Source of the DNA: Candidatus Micrarchaeia archaeon
GTDB taxonomy: Archaea > Micrarchaeota > Micrarchaeia > Anstonellales > VGKX01
Assembly (NCBI GenBank): GCA_041650395.1
Contig: JBAZLG010000003.1
Location: 182,917 to 246,916 of the forward strand
DNA length: 64,000 nt
Direction of reading: 5' to 3'
Positions 12,068 through 50,355 of this stretch are shown in pieces (positions within the stretch are counted from its first letter, which is position 1; the number at the start of each line of letters is the position of its first letter). The position numbers and the translations under genes were made by a program. The notes under the pieces are model-generated. The model was given only the letters and a program-made list of their open reading frames with translations, did no database searches and was not told where the DNA came from.

Positions 12068-12733
12068 ATGTGCCTCCGATATGCGTTTAGCGTCATGGAC
12101 AGGGACGAAGTGAAGCAGAGGTTCGCACTGGTTCAGATAGCATACGAGCTTGAAGCCAGGTATAACATAGCTCCAACCCAATCTGTCCCCGCCATATTCA
12201 ACGATTCAAAGAATACGCTGTCTGGCGCACTCTGGGGAATGCCAGCTCAATGGGCAAATGAGCCGGGCAAGCTCCTGTTCAATGCGCGCGCGGAGTCAAT
12301 TGACTCAAAGCCCACATTCAGGCGGCATTTTGAGGAAAGCCGGTGCCTGATGCCTGCCAATGCATTCTACGAGTGGAAACACCCTGAAAAGAGGCCTTTC
12401 AGGTTCTCACTGAAGGATGATGCCATGTTCGCATTTGCAGCCATATACTCAATTGACAAGGAAAGCCAAAGGCGCTCGTGCTGCATGATTACCACGGAAA
12501 ATAATGCCCTTGTGGGCCAGGTCCATAATCGGATGCCTGTTATCCTGCCTCTCATGCGTGAAAAAGAGTTTCTTGATGCCACTCCAAAGGAGGCCAAGGC
12601 CATGCTAGTGCCATTCCCTGACAGCCTGATGGGCATGTATGAGCTTACCTCGCGGATTAACTCGTCAAGGGTGGATTCGCCCGAAATAATCAAGCCCCAA
12701 ACTGAAAAGGGGACATTGAAGGAGTATTTTTGA
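12068..12733 (+). CDS. yedK: SOS-response-associated peptidase (SRAP/YedK/HMCES family, DUF159), abasic-site DNA-protein crosslink protein
   Basis: N-terminal MCLRY matches the MCGRY-type start, with the catalytic Cys at position 2. Conserved ARAES...FRR and YEWK motifs. A TATA-like ttaaaata lies about 28 nt upstream. Confidence 0.8.
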   Translation: MCLRYAFSVMDRDEVKQRFALVQIAYELEARYNIAPTQSVPAIFNDSKNTLSGALWGMPAQWANEPGKLLFNARAESIDSKPTFRRHFEESRCLMPANAFYEWKHPEKRPFRFSLKDDAMFAFAAIYSIDKESQRRSCCMITTENNALVGQVHNRMPVILPLMREKEFLDATPKEAKAMLVPFPDSLMGMYELTSRINSSRVDSPEIIKPQTEKGTLKEYF

Positions 12734-12857: not shown

Positions 12858-15593
12858 ATGATTGATGCTATGGAAAATGAGTCGTTAATTAATGAAGACA
12901 AAATTAAACTGCTTGCAAAAAAACAATTGGATCAATATCCTTTAGACAAAGATTTAAGTGCAGAGTGGGATCGGTTCTTGTCTAGTAAATATAATCTACA
13001 ACGTTATAGAGCTCTGGCAAATCTTTTATATAAAAGTTCATTATTAACTCTAAAAAAAGAAACAGAGATTAAAGATAGTGATCAGCGTATTATTCTTTTT
13101 AATAACGCCTATGAAGCAGTAAAACAGGCAGAACTAATTTTTCGAACTATAAACCTTCTTGTTTTAAGTTATGGATGTAGGTCTGTATCCTTACAATTAA
13201 AAATAAAAATTATCTTTGATTCGAACTCTATTTCTATCACTGCTGATTCTTTTAACAAAGAAGTAAATTCGATCATAGATGAAATTAGAATATTCATAAA
13301 TGATTTTGATAAGTATGGAGAAGATATTGCTTCGAAACAAATTCAGATTATTTTGTTATTTGGTTCAGTCATACATTCTCCAGTTATTAAATTGAATAAA
13401 CTTAAAATGTTTAATAAGGCGGAAGAAATAATTCAGTTTATCAAAGAAAATACAGATAAGTTAGATCTGAGATCTGGAAAATATTCTCCATCATTCGAAA
13501 ATACAGCAAAAACAATTTTTGATCAGATACTCTTAGTTAATGCTGAGACTTTGTCCCGAAAAGAACAATCAATAAATGGTTATTCATTAAAAGCGGCAGA
13601 TTATTATCTTGATGTGAGTAATAAAATTGAATCCGAAGCTATCAAAACAGAAGCTCTCCAACATTATTATCGAATTCTGGCTTTTCGTAACAAATATACT
13701 GGTGCAAATAATGATCAACAAAATTTTATTAGTTATATTGACTCTGCGATTGTGACTTCAGAAAAATTCAACCCTAAACAGGCAGTCTTTTTAAAAGGTT
13801 TTAAAAATCAGCATCTTTCAAGATTTAGATCAAGAAGTCTCGAAGATAGAATTGACCTAATTGGGCGAGCGATTGGTTTTTTTAAAATGGCTGGGCCTAA
13901 TCATATATCAGATCTCAAAATATCTAATTTTTATTCATTATATCTACAGTCATTACAATCTGAACTTCTGAATGTTGAACGTTTAAGTTTAATTGAGCGT
14001 GCACTTGTAAATGTTGAGACAACCCCATCAATAAAATCCTTATATCGCATTGAATATAGTGAATTACTACTTCAGTTCCATTTCTTTTCATTTATAAAAA
14101 ATGTTAAAACTATGAATTATCATTCTGCCTTTAAGCATTTGAATGAATTAAATAATCTGGGGGGAAATCGTTCATCAATTAGGTCATATTATTGGATTGG
14201 TCGTATTATTGGTCAATCGTCAAGGGATCAACAGAAAATAAATTTAATTAATTGGAAAGTTGAACTAGAGACTCTTAAGGAAAGTGGTTCGATAGATAAT
14301 CCCAAACTTCGTAATTTCATTGATGATGTCATTTCATATGCTCAACTTGCACAAAACGATTCTTCAGGGATTGTCGAGAAAAAAAGATTAGAGCTAATAA
14401 GTCTGTTTGCTGGTGAACAACTAAATTTGTCTGAAATATACGATATTCGTTCATTACTTGGTTATCCTAAACTTAGTGCGTTGTTACCCAAAAAATTAAA
14501 AGAGCGCATTGAAAAAAACTCTACCATTTCCAATCAAATTTCAGATCCAAATATAAAATTAGAAATTGCCGGATTTTTTAACTATCGATTGATTGGTAAT
14601 TTATTGGACATATTAATTGAAGGTTATTCAAAATTTCTTTATGATGAGGAATGGGAGAAAAAAATAATTGAAATTACCCAAAAAGATCCGGAAAGAATTA
14701 CTATAGGGGATCAATTAAAATTATTAAAAAAATTCTGTCATGAATACTGCCCACTAGAAGGTATGCCGATTGAGTGGTTGGCAGAGCTCGAAGATGATCA
14801 TTTAAACAGTCGAAATTCTATAATCCATGATTTCGAACCCGAAATTGCAAATTTAGAATTGGAACATCTTCAGCAAGCAATTTATTCAATATTAAAATAT
14901 ATTCCATTGCCTCTATATGTAGAAAATAATTCATATTTCTTATTTGAAAAAAAAGAACCCGTAGATCTAAAAATTCAAGATATCCCAGATGGAATCTACG
15001 GTGCTATAATCGCGCCATCTAATGACCGCCCACGTGAACAACAGAAAATTATTTTTGTCTGTAATCTAACTTTGGCAAGCTCCAAACAAATTGGTTATAG
15101 CGAGGGTACCAAAAAAATTCATATTATGCATTACTCAAAAAATAGAGATAATTTTGATGGCACACAATTATTTGAAAAAAAATTGACAATCGATATACCG
15201 ATTGAATTCTGGGCTGAAAAAAATAATGAAAATTTTGATAAGGCATTTATTAAAATTGAAGATAGTGCTAAAAGAGAATTTGGTGAAGCTTATGCAAAAG
15301 ACTATTGTATTTGTAATCAGTTTATAACAGCAACTAGAAAAGCTGCTGATTTAGATGAACATAAACTTATGAATTATATGGAGGGCGCATTATATCATTT
15401 AAGTCGTCATCTTAACTTGAATTATTATACTGGACGTGGATTATTATCAAAAGAAATTATTTTTGGAATAAATAGAGGTCGAATATTGGATTTAAGTAAT
15501 AAAGAAGTGGCTATATTTAAATTTAAAAAAATGAAAAATGTTCTGATAAAAATGAGGGTACGGATTGATACTCCTGATGTTCTATTAAATTAA
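12858..15593 (+). CDS. Large (911 aa) hypothetical protein encoded in a low-GC island, with a single HEPN-like Rx4H motif (SRNSIIHD)
   Basis: About 30% GC against about 57% in the flanks. Single uninterrupted ORF. The only recognisable motif is R-N-S-I-I-H near residue 650. No Walker motifs and no TM. Confidence 0.7.
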   Translation: MIDAMENESLINEDKIKLLAKKQLDQYPLDKDLSAEWDRFLSSKYNLQRYRALANLLYKSSLLTLKKETEIKDSDQRIILFNNAYEAVKQAELIFRTINLLVLSYGCRSVSLQLKIKIIFDSNSISITADSFNKEVNSIIDEIRIFINDFDKYGEDIASKQIQIILLFGSVIHSPVIKLNKLKMFNKAEEIIQFIKENTDKLDLRSGKYSPSFENTAKTIFDQILLVNAETLSRKEQSINGYSLKAADYYLDVSNKIESEAIKTEALQHYYRILAFRNKYTGANNDQQNFISYIDSAIVTSEKFNPKQAVFLKGFKNQHLSRFRSRSLEDRIDLIGRAIGFFKMAGPNHISDLKISNFYSLYLQSLQSELLNVERLSLIERALVNVETTPSIKSLYRIEYSELLLQFHFFSFIKNVKTMNYHSAFKHLNELNNLGGNRSSIRSYYWIGRIIGQSSRDQQKINLINWKVELETLKESGSIDNPKLRNFIDDVISYAQLAQNDSSGIVEKKRLELISLFAGEQLNLSEIYDIRSLLGYPKLSALLPKKLKERIEKNSTISNQISDPNIKLEIAGFFNYRLIGNLLDILIEGYSKFLYDEEWEKKIIEITQKDPERITIGDQLKLLKKFCHEYCPLEGMPIEWLAELEDDHLNSRNSIIHDFEPEIANLELEHLQQAIYSILKYIPLPLYVENNSYFLFEKKEPVDLKIQDIPDGIYGAIIAPSNDRPREQQKIIFVCNLTLASSKQIGYSEGTKKIHIMHYSKNRDNFDGTQLFEKKLTIDIPIEFWAEKNNENFDKAFIKIEDSAKREFGEAYAKDYCICNQFITATRKAADLDEHKLMNYMEGALYHLSRHLNLNYYTGRGLLSKEIIFGINRGRILDLSNKEVAIFKFKKMKNVLIKMRVRIDTPDVLLN

Positions 15594-16050: not shown

Positions 16051-17076
16051 TCAGAAAACCCGGAAATCGATTACGACCTGCTGGACGTGCGGCGAGAAGG
16101 GCCGCACCACCCGCTTGTTGATTATCTCGAACTTCCTGCCAGCATCTGCACATGCTTTCCCTATTGCCGCAAGCGGCTTTTCAAAGCCTGATTCTATTTC
16201 AGAGAATGAGTAGAGATGTATCATGGCGCCAATTTTTGCGAAACTGATGGCTTCAGGGAGGAAAAGTTCCGCGTCCTTTGGAAGAGGCATGGCAATCCTG
16301 TCATACGCGCCGAGATATTCCCCGCCAAGCCTTCGCACGTCTGCGTGCACGCACCTGACATTTGAAAGCTTGTTGAGCCTTATGTTCCTCTCGAAATATT
16401 CGCATGCCACGGGATTCAGTTCAACGCCGGTTATTTTCGCGCCCCTGCAGAACCTGCCGGCGACAAGCGCGAACGGCCCGCAGCCGGCAAAAAGCACGAG
16501 ATAATTCTCGCCGGGCTTCACCTGCCGCGCTATGCGCATCCTCTCCGTGGCAAGGCGCGGGGAAAAATACATCCTTGCAAGGTCGATTTTCATGCGCGCG
16601 CCGTTTTCCACGTAAAGCGTTTCAGTCCGCTTTTCCCCTGCCACGTGTGAGAATTTCCTCACCCTGTACTCGCCTTCCATCGGGCTTGACTTTGAGAGCA
16701 CCGCCTTGACGTTGTGATGGACAGCAAGCACCGCCTCCCCTATTTTTTTCGCATATTTGGCAATGGAACCTGAAATCTCAAGGACCGCGATGTCGCCTAT
16801 TATGTCAAACGACCTCTTGACCTCATCAAGCTGTTTTGCAGGTATGGAGCCATACAGGGCCTCAAACACGGATTTGGGCTTTGCCTCCTCTTCCTTGAAT
16901 GCGAAATTGCCAAAGGACGCATCAAGCCATTTGGGGATTTCAAACCGCCCCGACACTGGAAAAGAGATTGAACCCGCGGATTTCACCGGCTTGTAGCCGT
17001 GGGCGAAATGCCCGCCGGAAATTAGGAAGAGCTTGAGCCTCTGGGCATTAGCAACCTTTGTTTTGATTCCAAGCAT
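16051..17076 (-). CDS. trm5: tRNA (m1G37) methyltransferase Trm5 / TYW2-like (Met-10+ family)
   Basis: Class I MTase with DIIGDIAVLEI and VLFAGCGPFALVAG motifs typical of the Trm5/Taw2 family. Start set at the internal Met to avoid overlap with the upstream gene. Confidence 0.7.
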   Translation of the reverse strand: MLGIKTKVANAQRLKLFLISGGHFAHGYKPVKSAGSISFPVSGRFEIPKWLDASFGNFAFKEEEAKPKSVFEALYGSIPAKQLDEVKRSFDIIGDIAVLEISGSIAKYAKKIGEAVLAVHHNVKAVLSKSSPMEGEYRVRKFSHVAGEKRTETLYVENGARMKIDLARMYFSPRLATERMRIARQVKPGENYLVLFAGCGPFALVAGRFCRGAKITGVELNPVACEYFERNIRLNKLSNVRCVHADVRRLGGEYLGAYDRIAMPLPKDAELFLPEAISFAKIGAMIHLYSFSEIESGFEKPLAAIGKACADAGRKFEIINKRVVRPFSPHVQQVVIDFRVF

Positions 17077-17101
17077 TGGAAAAGAGCACCTGCGAAACTG
17101 G

Positions 17102-18454
17102 TTACGGGCAGGAGTAGGCCGCAGCCACTGGATTGATATGGTCTGAAGGTATGACAGGAGTGCTTGTGTCCTGCACCGTGTTTTCAAGATAGTTCAGGTT
17201 CAAGAGGAAACTGCACTGCCTGTCCGCGCTGCCATTTGCCGCAAAGCCCGCAAACACGTTCATTTTGGGCACCATGTACTTCTGGCACGAGCCGAACCAG
17301 CCGTTGAATTCGGGATGGATTTGCTGGCCTGAAGTGCTGACAAGCCCATAATCGCACGCCTGTGAAGTGCATGTGCGCGGCATAGAATCAAGCCCGTAAT
17401 AAGCAACGCCAATCACGCCGCTTTGTGCAAGTATCTGCTTGAGCTCGAACACCCTCTGGAACGCGGTTGCCACGTCCTGCTCCGTGTAGGTGCACATGCC
17501 GTCGTCGGACTTGCCCGGGCTTGCGGCAAAGTAATACCACAGTATAGGCTTTCCATATGTCTGGCGAAGGTATTTTGCGAACTGGACGTTTTGCATTATG
17601 GCGATTTCAAGATCGCACGTGCCGGAATAGTTGTTGAGTATGATACCCTGGCCGACAATGTCAACGTACTTGGAATTGTGGCTGCCCCCAGAATCATTGA
17701 GGAAATAATTTATCGTCTTCAAGTCGAGCCTCTGCGCGGCAAGCATTGTCAGGCACTTGGTGCAGTTTGCCTTTACAGCCGCAAGCTGGTCAAGCACCTT
17801 GTACCTGTCGGCATAGCCCGCGTCGACCTCGCTTGAGACTATCACAGGCCCCTCGCCGTCAAGCTCATGCGCTATTGCGCCGCTGGCGCTCGCGTTTATG
17901 TTAAGCCCTGCGCTGTAATAGAGATATACGGGCAACGCGTTCTGGCGCAGGTAGCAGATTGCCATGTCAGCAGACGAGAGCGCCGGCGGGCTTGTCGAGT
18001 TCCCTTTCAGCCAGATTACAGGCATTGTCAGGGAATTGTTGCAGTATGTCTGCGCCCGGGCAAAGTCGGTTGCATTTGGCCCCTGGCCTATCATGAAAAG
18101 CATGGGGAACGAGCCGTCGGAATTCGACGAATCGTTGAGCGCGCTGAAAGTGGAATAGTTCATGCGCGTGAACGAGCAGTTGCCGTAGTGCAGGTTTGAC
18201 GAGAGGCCGAGGAAGCCAGAATCGTTCTTGCACTCGAACACAGTGCATGGCGTCATGTTGCTGTCGGAGCAGACTCGGGTTATGTTGGTTATGTTGAACT
18301 CGACAAGCTTGTCAGGATTGACAGGCCCGCTGACGCAGCCAAGCGAGAGCAGGGCTAAAGAAACAATGGCGGCAAGGAAAATGGCTCGAAGCCACAGCCT
18401 GCCTGCAAAAATTGTCCTGACAGAGTCCATGATAACAATACCTTTATAGCTCAT
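17102..18454 (-). CDS. Secreted or membrane-anchored Cys-rich glycoprotein with many N-x-S/T sequons
   Basis: N-terminal hydrophobic segment AIFLAAIVSLALLSLGC. More than 15 NxS/T sequons. Its ATG overlaps the upstream giant gene's TGA stop as ATGA at 18451-18454. Confidence 0.6.
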   Translation of the reverse strand: MSYKGIVIMDSVRTIFAGRLWLRAIFLAAIVSLALLSLGCVSGPVNPDKLVEFNITNITRVCSDSNMTPCTVFECKNDSGFLGLSSNLHYGNCSFTRMNYSTFSALNDSSNSDGSFPMLFMIGQGPNATDFARAQTYCNNSLTMPVIWLKGNSTSPPALSSADMAICYLRQNALPVYLYYSAGLNINASASGAIAHELDGEGPVIVSSEVDAGYADRYKVLDQLAAVKANCTKCLTMLAAQRLDLKTINYFLNDSGGSHNSKYVDIVGQGIILNNYSGTCDLEIAIMQNVQFAKYLRQTYGKPILWYYFAASPGKSDDGMCTYTEQDVATAFQRVFELKQILAQSGVIGVAYYGLDSMPRTCTSQACDYGLVSTSGQQIHPEFNGWFGSCQKYMVPKMNVFAGFAANGSADRQCSFLLNLNYLENTVQDTSTPVIPSDHINPVAAAYSCP

Positions 18455-42829: not shown

Positions 42830-43867
42830 GTGGGTGTCTCGCTCTCCGACTTGGTGAATCCCAGGCAGACCTCGTTCTCCGAGTTTTCAGGCAAAGTTGT
42901 CGCGATAGACGCGTACAACACGCTCTACCAGTTCCTCACCTCCATCAGGCAGCCCGACGGGACTCCGCTCTCCGACACCAATGGAAACCCGACGGGGCAT
43001 CTCACGGGGCTATTTTACAGGACAGTGAAGCTTCTCGAAGCCGGCGTCAAGCCGGTGTTCGTATTTGACGGCGTGCCCCCGGAATTCAAGCGCGCAACCC
43101 TTGACAAGAGGCACGAGATTAAAGTTGCCGCGCATGAGAGCATGGAAGCGGCGCTGAAGGCGGGGGATTTCGACGCTGCGAAGAAGTTCTCCGCGCGCAC
43201 TGTCAGGCTCACAAAGCCTATGGCCGCCGAGGCCCGCGAGCTTTTGGGATTCATGGGCGTGCCTTCAGTGCAGGCGCCAAGCGAGGGCGAGGCGTGCGCG
43301 TCCGTCATGGTGCGCGAGGGCATCGCATACGCCGTGGCATCGCAGGACTATGACGCGCTGATGTTCGGCGCGCCACGGCTTATCAGGAACCTTTCTGTTT
43401 CAGGGAAGCGCAAGATGCCAGGCAGGCATGAATGGGTCGAGACAAGCCCCGAACTCCTGGAACTTCCCGAAGTCCTGAAACAATTGGGCCTTACGCAAAA
43501 GCAATTGATTTGGATTGGCATACTCATTGGGAACGACTTCAACTCCGGGATAAAGGGGATTGGCCCGAAAAAGGCATTGAAAATCGTGAAGGAGTGCAAG
43601 TCCCTTGAGGACATTGTGAATTACGCGCGGGTTGAATTGGAATACGAGTTCCCAGAGGACGTCTTCGGGATTGAAAGGTTTTTTTTGGACCCGCCTGCTG
43701 TGCATGACGAGTTCCTGGATTTTGGCAAGATAGACAAGCAGGCGGTGGTGGAATTTCTTTGCAGGAAGCACGACTTCTCGGAAGAGCGCGTGTCGCGCAC
43801 CCTCGACTCGCTTGTGAAAAACGTCACTGAAAAAAAGGCGCAGAAGGGACTTGGAGAATGGTTTTAG
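42830..43867 (+). CDS. fen: Flap endonuclease FEN-1
   Basis: MGVSLSDLV N-terminus, VVAIDAYNTLYQFL, VFVFDGVPPEFK, and an H3TH region. GTG start. Confidence 0.9.
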   Translation: MGVSLSDLVNPRQTSFSEFSGKVVAIDAYNTLYQFLTSIRQPDGTPLSDTNGNPTGHLTGLFYRTVKLLEAGVKPVFVFDGVPPEFKRATLDKRHEIKVAAHESMEAALKAGDFDAAKKFSARTVRLTKPMAAEARELLGFMGVPSVQAPSEGEACASVMVREGIAYAVASQDYDALMFGAPRLIRNLSVSGKRKMPGRHEWVETSPELLELPEVLKQLGLTQKQLIWIGILIGNDFNSGIKGIGPKKALKIVKECKSLEDIVNYARVELEYEFPEDVFGIERFFLDPPAVHDEFLDFGKIDKQAVVEFLCRKHDFSEERVSRTLDSLVKNVTEKKAQKGLGEWF

Positions 43868-43879
43868 AAGAGGAATAAA

Positions 43880-44692
43880 ATGAATATTGTCAAAGAATAT
43901 TTAATATTGGCTATTGGAGATCTCAAAGCAGCAGAAATACTTCAGAAAAATAAGCTTTACCCCTATGCAATATATTTTACCATTCAAGCATTGGAAAAAG
44001 TAACAAAAGCTCAATTAATCTTGAATAACACGATACCACCAGAACAGCTAAAAAAGAAAATAGGGCATAACCTTTTTTTAGGATTTGCCCGATATTGGCG
44101 CCAAAATAAAACCATGTGGGATGCTCATAAAATAATGATGTCAAACCCTAAATTTAAAATAATGTTTAACGATTCAGAAAGCCACATAAAAAATGAAAAA
44201 GAAATTGCAGCAAACATAAAGGCGATAGAATCACACATAAAAAAATTGGAGATAACTGCACTGGACAAAAATAGAAAACAAGAAGAAGCTGAAAAAACCA
44301 TAGAAAGATTAGATAAATACTATAGTAAAACAGGAGAAGAATACGAAAAACAAAGAAAACAAGTAGAAAATATTTGTTCTGAACTTAATGAAAAGATTAT
44401 GACAACTGAGAACGAAGAGCAAAGAAAAAAACTAGAAGAAAACATTAGAATTATTAAAAATGCAAAAGGCTATCTCACAGGAATCATTAGTTCAGATTAT
44501 ATTTTGAAAGTAATACAAGAATTAGCAGAGATAATGCCTAATCAAGATGAGTTAAGATATCCTGAAAGCAACCCATTAGACAAATTTAATGAAAACCATC
44601 CATTAGTAAAGAATTTGGAAGGAGTAAATAGACATCTAAAAAACAGTATAGAATTCACGCTTAGATTAGATCTTAGCAGTTGGGACAACTAA
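43880..44692 (+). CDS. HEPN-domain protein with a C-terminal K/E-rich coiled-coil extension. First gene of low-GC island 2.
   Basis: LILAIGDLKAAEILQKNKLYPYAIYFTIQALEKVTKAQLIL...KIGHNLF aligns with the canonical HEPN helix pattern (L..A..DL.AA..LL....Y..AvfhaqQAvEKalKAlL...tHdL). About 30% GC. Confidence 0.65.
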   Translation: MNIVKEYLILAIGDLKAAEILQKNKLYPYAIYFTIQALEKVTKAQLILNNTIPPEQLKKKIGHNLFLGFARYWRQNKTMWDAHKIMMSNPKFKIMFNDSESHIKNEKEIAANIKAIESHIKKLEITALDKNRKQEEAEKTIERLDKYYSKTGEEYEKQRKQVENICSELNEKIMTTENEEQRKKLEENIRIIKNAKGYLTGIISSDYILKVIQELAEIMPNQDELRYPESNPLDKFNENHPLVKNLEGVNRHLKNSIEFTLRLDLSSWDN

Positions 44693-44697
44693 ACATC

Positions 44698-45288
44698 CTA
44701 GCTGGTTTTTTTAGAAATTTCATCAAAGATTTGGTCGGCTCCCCACGCTTGAGCTGCCGCCCATGCCATCTTACGTTTCTTTTCACGAGTTAAAGCGGCA
44801 GCAGGTTTGTAACCAAGATCGTGATTAGCCTCAGCCCATGCATATTGGAAAAGAGTGCAAATTTGAATTTCAAAAAAATCGATAGGAAGAGAATATTTTT
44901 CGACCATAGCTCGCGGAATTAGACAAATTATTTTTTTCCCTTCATAACCAAAAGAAGTTGGATCCTCTGGCTCAGCAAATCTGTCTTCTACAATTGCAAA
45001 TAATTTTAATATTTTAGTTGTTGCTGGAGTAATATTTGAACGATATTTAACAACAATACGAATACCTATTTGGTCTTGTATTTCAGATACTGGTGAATTA
45101 TATTTAAAGGTACCATCCTTATTCATTGTTTTTGACTTCTTAGAAAAACTATGGATAGACTTAACACGATACTTAACCTGGTCAACATATTCAGACTTCA
45201 AAAAGGAAGCTTGTAGTTGATTAAATAAATCTTTAGCTGGTCTTTCTAATTTTGGGAATAATGATTTATACTGAATTTCTTTTACCAT
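44698..45288 (-). CDS. RelA/SpoT-homolog (RSH) synthetase-fold nucleotidyltransferase, small alarmone synthetase-like (toxSAS-like)
   Basis: YRVKSIHSFSKKSK matches the RxKxxxSxxxK motif. IGIRIVVKY matches the G-x-R-I-V motif. FFEIQICTLFQYAWAEANHDLGYKP matches EIQIRT..QH.WAE..H...YK. About 30% GC. The start overlaps the upstream gene's stop by 1 nt. Confidence 0.75.
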   Translation of the reverse strand: MVKEIQYKSLFPKLERPAKDLFNQLQASFLKSEYVDQVKYRVKSIHSFSKKSKTMNKDGTFKYNSPVSEIQDQIGIRIVVKYRSNITPATTKILKLFAIVEDRFAEPEDPTSFGYEGKKIICLIPRAMVEKYSLPIDFFEIQICTLFQYAWAEANHDLGYKPAAALTREKKRKMAWAAAQAWGADQIFDEISKKTS

Positions 45289-46346
45289 TATTCCAACCTT
45301 TTCCGTCTAGACGTTGATAGCTTAGTCGAACTTACTTTTCCAGTTAATGTAAACTGGGTTTTGCCATTCTGGAGCTTCTCACGCTTAACTCTCTGGTCAA
45401 AACTATTAACAGGGCCACTTATTGTAAAAGCATTATCTATTTCAACAGATTTGAGATTTATAGTTCGTAATAGCTGAGAAGTATCAATAACAAATGGATC
45501 ACTGTGGTATGCAGACGGAATCTTTTTTAAGAACATAGGGCGGGCAGATGCTGGAAGATAATCATTAGCGATTTGAGGAAAGGTTAAACTCTTATTTTTT
45601 TGACTAAGTAATGTTGTCGCAGCAGCAACAATTATTTGTTTGTCACCAATATTTTTAGATGAAGAAATTGCCGAAGTGAGAGCTTTCGATAACAAACTCG
45701 TGCCATATGAAGATTTGAGCGTAGGCATCGACAGTAGAAAGTCGTCTATCCAATAATTAGAAACACCTTTTAATTGCTGCTTGGCTTGCTTATCTTCAAC
45801 ATAGCCCTTCCAAAAGCTTCTTCTGGAAGAAATATCCCCATCATAAGTTGCAGCTTTAAAAAATGCAGATTCCTGAGAAAATGCATCACTTAAAACATTA
45901 ATTATGACATTTGTGCTAGCCGAATCCTTTTTGAAAGAAAGTACAGCTCCATGGGGAAATGTGAGCAACACTAAACGATTACCAGATGGAGAAGTCCCAA
46001 CTAAAATAATAAGTAATACAGTATTAGAACGTTTATCCATTGATTGAGATAAACGAACAGCCAACTGTTCAGAATTAGTTTGAAAATTCGCTTGATCTTG
46101 AATAATAAGATGAATCATATCTCTGACTTTATTTGTTTGTATATTATTTTCAGGGATAAAAGAAATTTCAATCGGAAATAAAGATGTTTTGAGATAAAAT
46201 GGTTTCAAAAAAGTTAGTAAGTCGGGAGATAAATTTGCGATAGACCCATTAACACAAGCAGAGAGAGATTTACCAGTAAGATGTTTGCCTGGCTTAACTA
46301 CATAAGCAGCACAGTGCTGTATATGCGATATACTTAGAGATGACAT
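45288..46346 (-). CDS. Hypothetical 352-aa protein, first gene of the RSH operon (candidate antitoxin, sensor or partner)
   Basis: Intact low-GC ORF with no TM and no recognised motif. A TATA-like aaatatataaaaat lies 40-60 nt upstream on the minus strand. Confidence 0.55.
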   Translation of the reverse strand: MSSLSISHIQHCAAYVVKPGKHLTGKSLSACVNGSIANLSPDLLTFLKPFYLKTSLFPIEISFIPENNIQTNKVRDMIHLIIQDQANFQTNSEQLAVRLSQSMDKRSNTVLLIILVGTSPSGNRLVLLTFPHGAVLSFKKDSASTNVIINVLSDAFSQESAFFKAATYDGDISSRRSFWKGYVEDKQAKQQLKGVSNYWIDDFLLSMPTLKSSYGTSLLSKALTSAISSSKNIGDKQIIVAAATTLLSQKNKSLTFPQIANDYLPASARPMFLKKIPSAYHSDPFVIDTSQLLRTINLKSVEIDNAFTISGPVNSFDQRVKREKLQNGKTQFTLTGKVSSTKLSTSRRKRLE

Positions 46347-46428
46347 TCTATCGTCACAGAAAACTTATGACTTCTAAGGTTATAAATGCGTGCATTTGAA
46401 TATAATTTTTATATATTTAAGTTTCTCT

Positions 46429-47244
46429 CTACCACCCGTAAATCTTCCTGATTGAGGCTTCAAGAAGCACGCAGATTACCTCGCCTTCGTCCTCTGAAAT
46501 GGGAACGACTATTGACTGGACAGAGCCGTTAGTGCCCTGCTCCGACGCCTTCAAGGTGTAGCCGAATGAAATGCCCTTAGAGAATTCAAGCACTGTGTTT
46601 CTCGTGTCCTTCGCGGATTCGTATTGCCCCTTGGACGGGTCGTGGTATAATTTCGAATTCTTGAGCGAGCCTGTGAGCACGGCAAGCATCTTGCCGATGT
46701 CAGTGATTGAGAGTTTCATTGTTATCTTGTTGTCCCAGTCGAATTTCTGCTCGCCTATTTGCTTTGATATGTCTATGAATATGCTCTGTTTCTCCGCGTT
46801 CAGGTCAAGCGACATCGCGCTTCCCGAATTCGCCTTTGTGGCCTTGTAGAGCCTGAATGGGATTCCCCTCCTCTCATAAGAGGTGCCAGAAGTCGAAGAG
46901 CCTGAACCCGCATAGGAATTTTTCCATGAGGATTGCGGATACTTGGGCTGGGCCTGCTGGCCTTGCGGATACCTCGGAGTAGATTCATAGGACGGCTTTG
47001 AAGGCGAGGCCGCCTGGGCTTGGCTTTTCCATGAAGGCTGGGCTGAAGATGGATTGGCAGGCTGGATGGGCGGCTTGATTTCCTGCTTTTGCGCAGGCTC
47101 CGGGGGCTTTGGCTCCTGTGAAACTGGCTTTTTCTCATCCTGCGCCGGCGCCTGGCTTGCCGGCTGTTGCGACTGGCTGAAACTTGATAGAGAGGGGTAA
47201 ATCTTTTTCTTGTTATCCTGCAATGCAGAGTTGATGTCCGCCAT
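46429..47244 (-). CDS. Hypothetical protein with a Pro/Gln-rich disordered N-terminus and a C-terminal globular domain of about 150 aa
   Basis: Intact ORF. A TATA-like ttatatat lies about 30 nt upstream. Function unknown. Confidence 0.5.
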   Translation of the reverse strand: MADINSALQDNKKKIYPSLSSFSQSQQPASQAPAQDEKKPVSQEPKPPEPAQKQEIKPPIQPANPSSAQPSWKSQAQAASPSKPSYESTPRYPQGQQAQPKYPQSSWKNSYAGSGSSTSGTSYERRGIPFRLYKATKANSGSAMSLDLNAEKQSIFIDISKQIGEQKFDWDNKITMKLSITDIGKMLAVLTGSLKNSKLYHDPSKGQYESAKDTRNTVLEFSKGISFGYTLKASEQGTNGSVQSIVVPISEDEGEVICVLLEASIRKIYGW

Positions 47245-48759: not shown

Positions 48760-50355
48760 ATGCCCGATCCCGTCTACGACAGCCTCAACAAGGGCTGGAA
48801 AAGCACGTGCAAGATAGTATTCGGCGAGGACATAGGCGAACTCGAGGATTTCGGCCCCTGGCTTGAAAAGGACATACACCCCCTCAGGCTGGAAAAATCG
48901 GCAGTTTCCGGCAGGGAAGTCGAAATATCCATACCCGATTACGCCCCTTCTTCCAGGTTCATGAGTTTCGACGAGATAGACTTCGGCAGGAAATTCCAGC
49001 CCCTGTCCATAAACGAGGTCAAGGACATCGACTCCATAGTGGAGGCCGTCAGGGAGAGGATATATTACACTGGCAACCTGGTCCTCGGGAACTCCTCGAA
49101 TGTAGGGCGCTCGAACAACATAGTGGACAGCCATTATATCTGGAAGTCCAACCGCATTTCTGACTCGAAATACATAGCATATTCCCAGGATTCCAGGTAC
49201 TGCGAGTATTTCTTTGGCGGCTGGGTAGGGGCAATAAACAGCTTCTGCATAAAGTCCGGAGGCGGCAGGCTGCAAAGGTGCTTCGAGGCGTTCGACTGCG
49301 AATCCACTACTTCAGCCTACTACTGCGCCCTTGTCCAAAACAGCCAGGAATGCATGTTCTCGTTCGGCTGCAGGTCGAAAAACTACATCATAGGGAACCT
49401 TCCCCTGCCAAAGGGCAAGTATGAAAGGATTAAACAGGAAATCCTTGCGGAGATAGCCCAGGCGCTCGGGCGCGACAAGAGGGTATTCTCGCTTTTCGAC
49501 ATCATAGAGAGGGCGGGCAAATACGGGAAAAGCACACTGAAGGTTCCGCCGCAAAAAGAGGAGAAATTCAACAAGCAGGCAATTGAATCCGCGTTTTCCC
49601 ATACAACCGCCCTAGTGCTTGGCAGGGAATTGTCAGGGATCGACGATTATTCCAAATTCCTGCTTGGCCACGTGCAGGCTAACAGGAGCGCCAAGTCGCC
49701 CCTGACAGGAAAGAAAGTCATTGCCGCCGGGTTCCAGGCATATTTCATGGACCTTTATGACATAGGGAAGAGGACAATCGACCAATATGAGATAGACGAG
49801 ATTGGCAAAACCGCGATTTCAATGGAAGAGGCCACAGGCGTTGGACTTGAAATGGACAAGCTTGCCCGGGCGCTCTATCCGATAGCCTACGCATGCTTCC
49901 AGAAAAACAACGGGACTATCACGAACGTGAAAAATGGCGCTGTAGTGCTTGACAGCTCCGACTGCTACGAAGGGTGCGCGTACTCAAGCTCGAAAAAATG
50001 CGCCTATTGCTTCTGGCCGAGGGAGTCCGAGAACATATTCGGCTCTGAAATCACGTGGAGCTGCTCGTTTTGCATAAAATGCTTCCATTCAAAGAAGCTC
50101 ACGCGCTGCTTCGAGTGCGACAACTGCGAATCGTGCTCCGACACGTATTATTCCCACAACTGCGAGAATTCGAGGGATTCCATGTTCTGCTTCAATGCGA
50201 AAAACCTTGCCCATTCCATAGGGAATGCGCAGCTCCCGCCTGAAAAGTACAAAGGCGTCAAGTCAGCGGTGCTGGAACAGATAGCAACGGAACTCGAGAA
50301 GAAAAAGACGCTAAAGTGGGACATATTCACGCTTGGAGCTGGCAAAGCCAAATAA
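48760..50355 (+). CDS. Cys-rich repeat protein A (531 aa), cytoplasmic, beta-solenoid-like repeats with Cys ladders. Paralog of 53430..55034.
   Basis: Repeating 11- to 22-residue units such as NVGRSNNIVDS / HYIWKSNRISDS / KYIAYSQDSRYC and CxxC-rich blocks. About 65-70% aa identity to paralog B, with blocks of identical nucleotides. Confidence 0.6.
   Translation: MPDPVYDSLNKGWKSTCKIVFGEDIGELEDFGPWLEKDIHPLRLEKSAVSGREVEISIPDYAPSSRFMSFDEIDFGRKFQPLSINEVKDIDSIVEAVRERIYYTGNLVLGNSSNVGRSNNIVDSHYIWKSNRISDSKYIAYSQDSRYCEYFFGGWVGAINSFCIKSGGGRLQRCFEAFDCESTTSAYYCALVQNSQECMFSFGCRSKNYIIGNLPLPKGKYERIKQEILAEIAQALGRDKRVFSLFDIIERAGKYGKSTLKVPPQKEEKFNKQAIESAFSHTTALVLGRELSGIDDYSKFLLGHVQANRSAKSPLTGKKVIAAGFQAYFMDLYDIGKRTIDQYEIDEIGKTAISMEEATGVGLEMDKLARALYPIAYACFQKNNGTITNVKNGAVVLDSSDCYEGCAYSSSKKCAYCFWPRESENIFGSEITWSCSFCIKCFHSKKLTRCFECDNCESCSDTYYSHNCENSRDSMFCFNAKNLAHSIGNAQLPPEKYKGVKSAVLEQIATELEKKKTLKWDIFTLGAGKAK

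Follow-up and report, generated by a model that had tools for sequence, protein, structure and literature searches.

A short RelA/SpoT synthetase encoded with a YejK-like nucleoid-associated protein on a horizontally acquired island of a Micrarchaeia archaeon: a putative domain-reduced relative of type I PANGU

In a 64,000-nucleotide stretch of contig JBAZLG010000003.1 from Candidatus Micrarchaeia archaeon, referred to below as the window, a small island of low guanine plus cytosine (GC) content carries a two-gene operon. The upstream gene encodes a 352-residue protein related to the nucleoid-associated protein (NAP) YejK, and the downstream gene encodes a 196-residue synthetase of the RelA/SpoT homologue (RSH) type. 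As judged from sequence comparisons, this short pair is a mobile two-gene module related to type I PANGU but reduced in domains; PANGU systems are bicistronic operons against phages that center on a YejK-like NAP (bioRxiv 10.64898/2026.04.06.716658, April 2026). The reading that we favor, with a probability of about one half, is that the pair is a PANGU-like system whose NAP gates an RSH effector that would arrest the cell upon virus-induced genome damage. An earlier note on this DNA had proposed a toxin or antiviral role, which our results support as plausible only. The same note held the system to be of an undescribed class, but the combination of a NAP with a toxSAS has been published as type I PANGU (bioRxiv 10.64898/2026.04.06.716658), and a YejK-domain defense system has been validated independently by DefensePredictor (PMC13092281). 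With the class itself already described, what appears to be new is a RelQ-sized effector without the DNA-mimicking (DMK) domain of PANGU together with a highly divergent NAP, found in archaea as well as in bacteria.

The RelA/SpoT signature recognized in the earlier note was borne out. The 196-residue protein scored 48.5 bits with the RelA_SpoT family (PF04607), for which the cutoff is 27, and the motifs quoted at that time were present. The RSH motifs RxKxxxSxxxK, DxxGxR, the G-loop Tyr, ExQ and HxxxYK were all found, with the one caveat that the His following the G-loop Tyr is replaced by Lys, and the catalytic residues R41, K43, K51, D72, G75, R77, Y115, E140, Q142, H156, Y160, and K161 were kept. 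The Cys in the 'EIQICT' segment is normal for the family, whose residues at this position include S, K, C, and A. More than 1,284 matches to RSH homologs were obtained, which were stand-alone proteins of about 200 residues; the lengths of the top 120 homologs ranged from 157 to 221 residues with a median of 203. The family also possesses its own conserved C-terminal helix, AAQAWGADxIF. When the family profile was compared with the Protein Data Bank (PDB), the best match was RelQ/YjbM, which aligned end to end (E = 2.7e-18), and RelP was matched as well, whereas CapRel (7ztb) reached only 2.9e-5 with an alignment limited to the synthetase core. By homology, the 196-residue protein is thus identified as a genuine RelA/SpoT synthetase with a catalytic core that is predicted to be intact. 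Similar to RelQ and RelP (YjbM/YwaC) of Firmicutes, its best relatives of solved structure, it is a single-domain protein of the same size with the same catalytic motifs. Different from them, the RSH family found here, which is about 25% identical to RelQ and RelP, has an acidic character of its own, and RelQ and RelP are encoded by stand-alone housekeeping genes without a NAP partner. The PADLOC search with the RSH returned only a weak match to PDC-S33 (21.8 bits), which is common to short and long RSHs and does not discriminate between them.

The 352-residue partner had been described in the earlier note as a protein of novel or unknown fold, a view that the structural comparison overturned. 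Pfam, NCBIfam, and PADLOC searches of the partner gave no match, and Pfam NA37 was not found even at an E-value of 0.1. A word-indexed search with the partner returned one relative, whereas an exhaustive HMMER search recovered 398 cluster representatives, nearly all of about 340 residues, so that the family comprises at least 398 clusters at 50% identity. The NA37 profile detected 9 of 62 members of this family, the best of them with an E-value of 7.4e-9. An AlphaFold2 model computed from the single sequence was unusable, with a predicted local distance difference test score (pLDDT) of 45, and was superseded by an alignment-based model with a pLDDT of 89.3 and a predicted template modeling score of 0.81. 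The sole significant PDB match of the latter model was 9be2, YejK of Escherichia coli (Foldseek E = 8.6e-8, probability 1.00, 349 aligned columns). Moreover, hhalign aligned the partner family profile with a Klebsiella plasmid NAP, which is itself NA37-positive (65 bits), at a probability of 98% and an E-value of 2.6e-13. The alignment of the family with E. coli YejK alone was collinear and weak (probability 18%, E = 0.0013); the link to YejK is convincing because of the plasmid NAP alignment together with the structure, not because of this comparison alone. A sequence-profile search of the PDB with the partner had produced only spurious matches to centrin, so that comparison of folds was needed. 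By family profiles and predicted structure, the partner is a divergent YejK/NA37 NAP rather than a protein of novel fold. E. coli YejK (NdpA, PDB 9be2) is about 11% identical to the partner in the window and is an acidic protein (isoelectric point, pI, 4.9) encoded by a stand-alone housekeeping gene, whereas the partner is basic (pI 9.8) and shares an operon with an enzyme. In one further protein, P0206 (975 residues), the NAP-like partner domain (residues about 64–340) carries a fused C-terminal extension, about 630 residues long, without a Pfam match; P0206 may be a single-chain variant of NAP and effector.

The positions and strands of the open reading frames (ORFs) were exactly as the earlier note had given them, and so was the 1-nt overlap between partner and RSH genes (TAATG). 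The coupling of a stand-alone RSH to an upstream partner, also proposed there, was found to extend well beyond the window. In every locus recovered via either protein (17 loci), a NAP-like gene was followed immediately and on the same strand by a short RSH gene, whose products were 194–216 residues long. The loci comprised 12 from a scan of species-representative genomes plus L001, L002, L006, L021, L024, and L026, with L009 and L004 being one Bathyarchaeota contig. Their hosts included Bathyarchaeota, Alphaproteobacteria, Sphingomonas, Sphingopyxis, Pirellulales, Eremiobacterota-type metagenome-assembled genomes (MAGs), Chitinophagales, Acidobacteriota, Chloroflexota, and others; further carriers were several metagenome contigs and the Rhizobium plasmid pRetKim5a. 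The strict genetic coupling of the two genes therefore spans bacteria and archaea. The junction between them was tight in 15 of the 16 other loci, mostly with overlaps of 1–4 nt (chiefly of 4 nt) and with a range of −26 to +21 nt; the exception was L016, in which the partner ORF is shortened and a gap of 249 nt follows. The two proteins have also diverged together, as the pairwise identities of the partners correlated with those of the RSHs (r = 0.78, 17 loci). The nearest relatives of the pair in the window formed a group to which the Bathyarchaeota locus belongs, with identities of 32–33% for the partner and 46–48% for the RSH. No third gene conserved around the pair was found across the loci.

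The pair is mobile. In 16 of 18 loci, its GC content was below that of the flanking DNA, for instance 0.32 versus 0.59 in L018 and 0.46 versus 0.66 in L011, and the module appears to keep its AT-rich composition across very different hosts. Six conjugative Rhizobium/Agrobacterium plasmids, pRetKim5a and five more, carry the pair. On pRetKim5a of Rhizobium sp. Kim5 (L026, NZ_CP021125.1, 3985–5612), the two genes are annotated as "hypothetical protein" and "RelA/SpoT domain-containing protein," respectively, and their neighbors are DUF6035, AbiJ-NTD4, and AAA ATPase genes; the Rhizobium and Agrobacterium hosts are cultivable. Relatives of both partner and RSH exist among PHROGs, and the phage matches to the RSH were weak (24–28% identity). 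Of 15 independent loci, about 5 had a defense-type neighbor within 6 kb; these neighbors were type I methyltransferases, a DpdJ/MkoA-like helicase, a mad3-like gene, and AbiJ-NTD4. In addition, one RSH relative with 44% identity (L022, 7555–8624; L023, 2558–3627) is coupled, through a 4-nt overlap, to a gene for a 149-residue DUF1667 protein and adjoins a UvrD-helicase/PD-(D/E)XK pair, so that the same effector family is also found with another partner. The DUF1667-coupled RSH and the P0206-type fusion suggest that components are exchanged in a modular fashion.

In the window, the island (2,561 bp, GC about 0.30–0.35) exactly fills the space between the stop codons of the convergent fen-1 and Whirly-like genes (Table 1). 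The earlier note had reported a low-GC island against a background of 57% GC. The island is real, with values of 0.29–0.38 over positions 43,800–46,400, and the background was put slightly too high, the rest of the window having a GC content of 0.53. The three ORFs of the island correspond to the NCBI proteins WC506_06080, WC506_06085, and WC506_06090 of the Candidatus Micrarchaeia MAG, a member of DPANN. Although such AT-rich sequence is prone to stop codons, these ORFs span 196–352 codons; when the island was shuffled 300 times, the longest stop-free run was 143 codons. Because of this difference and of a coding density of 96%, the ORFs are real genes and not the products of chance. Horizontal acquisition, which the earlier note had proposed, was corroborated by an independent empty site. 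In L030, the nearest relative found in metagenomes, the gene order is the same (fen-1 61%, M50 peptidase 52%, and helix-turn-helix protein 52% identical), and the stop codons of fen-1 and the convergent Whirly-like gene are separated by 56 bp. As the same two stops lie 2,561 bp apart in the window, the island is an insertion, that is, foreign AT-rich DNA that was acquired horizontally. None of the three island genes was present in any of the 80 fen-1 loci compared. No att-like repeats flanking the island and no nearby tRNA were found, and an Rfam search of the island gave no match at an E-value of 0.1 or better. A second assembly (L029) was 100% identical over 12.5 kb and was therefore uninformative on selection.

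In type I PANGU, the NAP Pag1A forms a dimer that clamps DNA and is freed when phage nucleases degrade the chromosome. Freed Pag1A then binds Pag1B, a GRel toxSAS with a mass of about 37.5 kDa, at its acidic C-terminal DMK domain and converts an inert Pag1B tetramer into an active 2:1 complex, which produces (pp)pGpp from ATP and GTP, GDP, or GMP and depletes nucleoside triphosphates (NTPs). Neither gene alone nor the pair is toxic, the isolated SYNTH domain is inactive, and the NAP is an activator and not an antitoxin. Protection from phages is conferred through abortive infection. The DMK domain is the only part of Pag1B seen bound to the NAP and is termed a conserved architectural principle; the preprint contains no DMK-less variant. 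PANGU was reported from bacterial phyla, with NAPs of at least 300 residues searched by an NdpA (IPR007358) hidden Markov model (HMM) at E < 1e-10 (all bioRxiv 10.64898/2026.04.06.716658). Similar to type I PANGU, the short pair is bicistronic and tightly coupled with the same gene order, a YejK/NA37-fold NAP preceding a synthetase with the G-loop Tyr (Y115); its 1-nt overlap lies within the gap of <40 bp used for PANGU, and it is mobile and sometimes linked to restriction-modification systems. A Klebsiella plasmid (NZ_CP092398.1) that carries genes for SLATT/DUF4231, an NA37 NAP, and a 330-residue RSH fits the published architecture of PANGU Cluster 1. The RSH of the window was 31% identical to this putative GRel-type Klebsiella protein over residues 30–208 (E = 1e-13), and the C-terminal part of about 120 residues is missing. 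Different from type I PANGU, the hosts of the short pair include archaea (Micrarchaeia and Bathyarchaeota). The partner in the window, at 352 residues, exceeds the minimum length of the published NAP search; Pfam NA37, as a stand-in for the authors' HMM, did not match it. The E < 1e-10 filter probably misses most of the short-pair family.

By analogy with PANGU, we infer DNA binding by the NAP, its contact with the RSH and the direction of regulation as well as the product, the trigger, and the antiviral role. The NAP dimer would sit on chromosomal DNA until viral degradation or remodeling of the host genome frees it to engage the RSH. This contact would switch the RSH from an inert oligomer into an active enzyme, and because the DMK domain is absent, it would have to be made with the synthetase domain itself, which would differ from recognition in PANGU. 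The active RSH would move pyrophosphate from ATP to a purine nucleotide, so that (pp)pGpp or (pp)pApp would be made, ATP and GTP drained, and the infected cell arrested. We know of no (p)ppGpp regulon in archaea, and toxicity in an archaeon would for this reason be exerted mainly through NTP depletion. That the acidic RSHs of the family are gripped by the DNA clamp of the NAP is speculation, into which the basic copy of the window does not fit.

Several observations weigh against the PANGU-like reading. The effector has 196 residues, and the 17 paired RSHs 194–216, compared with about 330 for the PANGU-type RSH, and it lacks the C-terminal DMK domain. The homology to PANGU rests on the Klebsiella operon, which matches its description, and not on the sequences of Pag1A and Pag1B. 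The G-loop His that RelQ, the Klebsiella homolog, and 119 of 119 relatives retain is Lys in the window copy of the RSH (H119K), in which five more conserved positions are altered (R10L, R34Y, D85N, D127A, and H149Y). Moreover, with a pI of 9.39, this copy is the most basic of an otherwise acidic family (median 5.55, maximum 8.29). Given these atypical residues and charge, the copy in the window may be impaired or retargeted; H119K and the basic pI might be signs of decay or of an altered substrate. Finally, about 10 of 15 loci lie among housekeeping genes and not in defense islands, and no record with the partner was found in IMG/VR and INPHARED at BLAST level.

The main competing explanation is a classical toxSAS toxin-antitoxin (TA) system, in which the short RSH would be a constitutive toxin and the NAP-like protein its antitoxin, possibly autorepressing; the pair would then be an addiction element or a defense that fires when synthesis of the antitoxin stops. 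This was one of the readings in the earlier note. A conserved bicistronic pairing of a small alarmone synthetase with a partner, as in toxSAS TA modules, was seen in 17 loci; as the PANGU partner is an activator, TA is now one of two live models. Every toxSAS investigated prior to PANGU is a TA toxin with a tightly coupled partner (10.1101/575399; bioRxiv 10.64898/2026.04.06.716658). Similar to FaRel, FaRel2, PhRel, and PhRel2 as well as CapRel, the RSH of the window is a stand-alone synthetase with a conserved, tightly coupled neighbor and travels as mobile cargo. Typical TA traits of the pair are its upstream partner, the overlaps of 1–4 nt, its presence on conjugative plasmids, and its occurrence as a small insertion of two genes between housekeeping genes, and the DMK domain, the target that makes Pag1A an activator, is missing here. 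However, the partner is homologous to the NAPs of PANGU type, which are activators and for which neither the single genes nor the pair caused toxicity. At 352 residues it is much bigger than usual antitoxins and is not SAH, Panacea/PanA, or another known antitoxin. The RSH family is nearest to the housekeeping alarmone synthetases RelQ and RelP and not to known toxSAS structures; CapRel, of about 370 residues, bears a fused C-terminal antitoxin/sensor domain (pseudo-Zn-finger) that the RSH of the window does not have. On balance, we regard a TA system as unlikely. A non-immune role is still less probable. The pair would then be a NAP-linked small alarmone synthetase that ties nucleotide signaling to the state of the bacterial chromosome and, in the archaeon, a recent passenger that is inactive or decaying. 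The many loci among housekeeping genes would agree with such a role, as would the outlying charge of the window copy and its loss of conserved residues, among them the invariant G-loop His, and RSH enzymes and (p)ppGpp signaling are rare in archaea (PMC3153485). Yet both ORFs are intact and of full length in stop-rich DNA with the catalytic core kept; the pair behaves as mobile cargo, with a GC content below that of its hosts and a distribution that is patchy both among phyla and between domains, which is the pattern of conflict systems rather than of core physiology; and relatives built of the same two components are proven defense systems.

The third gene of the island had been taken in the earlier note for a canonical HEPN protein and for part of the module, in an echo of HEPN/MNT systems. 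Neither part of this claim was supported, and a system of three genes, with the HEPN-like protein and the RSH acting as a HEPN/MNT-like TA pair, is highly improbable and largely refuted. The two genes are adjacent in one low-GC island, and their stop codons are 5 bp apart. The 270-residue ORF matched HEPN (PF05168) with 22.0 bits, which is exactly the cutoff, and only over residues 10–54 (45 residues), and HEPN_AbiV with 18.3 bits, below the cutoff of 27.1. Against these matches, a regular-expression search found no Rx4-6H motif in the ORF, and deletion of its K/E-rich insert yielded no gain for the HEPN match (22.8 versus 22.0 bits). The C-terminal "RYPES" segment had no match, no homolog of the ORF was detected among 5.8e9 proteins, and it has no PDB relative. 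A related gene beside the pair was absent from 17 of 17 other loci. The ORF, with a GC content of 0.30, begins 12 nt downstream of the fen-1 stop; it runs convergently to the RSH gene and is not co-transcribed with it; furthermore, the RSH (PF04607) is not an MNT protein (PF01909). Given the shared island composition, the ORF probably arrived with or near the pair, and it is probably not part of the module but unrelated cargo of the island.

Within the PANGU-like reading, a more specific version is possible, and we put it forward tentatively, with the odds against it. The short pair would represent a distinct branch of NAP-sentinel immunity, in which the RelQ-like synthetase is gated by the YejK-like clamp itself and no DNA-mimic adaptor takes part. 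This branch would be active in archaea, including DPANN episymbionts with reduced genomes; as these lack the circuitry of a stringent response, it would kill or arrest the cell through NTP depletion or with another substrate. The basic H119K copy of the window hints at such retargeting. If this is true, the pair would be the first RSH-based and the first NAP-based immune system in Archaea. We agree with the earlier note that no characterized toxSAS defense system is known from archaea. If the pair is functional, the role of nucleoid proteins as genome-integrity sentinels would be extended from bacteria to archaea, and the DMK domain, the stated architectural principle of PANGU, would prove dispensable for a large family, which comprises over 1,200 RSH relatives and no fewer than 398 partner clusters (50% identity). 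A functional pair would also place an RSH with a likely immune role in a domain of life where RSHs are rare and (p)ppGpp signaling is not established, which raises the question of its toxic output. Surveys of NAP-based defense would undercount the short-pair family, because it escapes profile thresholds of the kind of NA37 at E < 1e-10. The Rhizobium and Agrobacterium plasmids provide tractable systems in which the short pair could be tested.

The features of the island and its borders are listed in Table 1. Two TATA-like boxes precede the partner gene, TTTATAA about 37 nt before the ATG and TTAAATATATAAAAA further upstream. From the archaeal TATA consensus, the 82-bp region that contains them is the putative promoter of the operon.

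Table 1. Features of the low-GC island and of its native borders, in window positions.
Feature	Position	Strand	Description	Basis
fen-1	42830..43867	+	Flap endonuclease gene, native left border	XPG_N/XPG_I match; GC 0.51-0.61; synteny with L030
Low-GC island	43868..46428	.	Inserted segment between fen-1 and the Whirly-family gene	Composition and L030 empty site
270-residue ORF	43880..44692	+	Orphan ORF; weak HEPN/AbiV-like N-terminal helical hairpin, K/E-rich coiled-coil middle	
196-residue RSH	44698..45288	-	Single-domain RelA/SpoT-homologue synthetase, RelQ-sized; proposed effector (Pag1B toxSYNTH analogue without DMK)	PF04607
Stop/start overlap	45286..45290	-	TAATG (1 nt), partner to RSH; putative translational coupling	Sequence read
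352-residue partner	45288..46346	-	Divergent YejK/NA37-like NAP; proposed to sense from DNA and to regulate the RSH (analogue of Pag1A)	
Putative promoter	46347..46428	-	Putative archaeal promoter of the two-gene operon, 82 bp, AT-rich	TATA-like boxes
Whirly-family gene	46429..47244	-	Native right border	PF08536, 45.5 bits; C-terminus ...IYGW* kept and convergent to fen-1 in L030

Other features of the window were noted in passing. A second island of low GC content (about 0.30 across 13–16 kb) holds a lone ORF of 911 residues (12858–15593, +), which had no Pfam or PADLOC match and only a marginal PHROG match; its neighbors are an SRAP peptidase gene (12068–12733) and a TYW2/Trm5 methyltransferase gene (16051–17187, −). 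A Cys-rich ORF of 531 residues (48760–50355, +), of normal GC content and without a Pfam family, is located directly 3' of a cobalamin adenosyltransferase gene. Finally, the product of the right-border gene in this DPANN archaeon is a Whirly-family protein of the single-stranded DNA-binding type, and its N-terminal half is rich in P, Q, and S.

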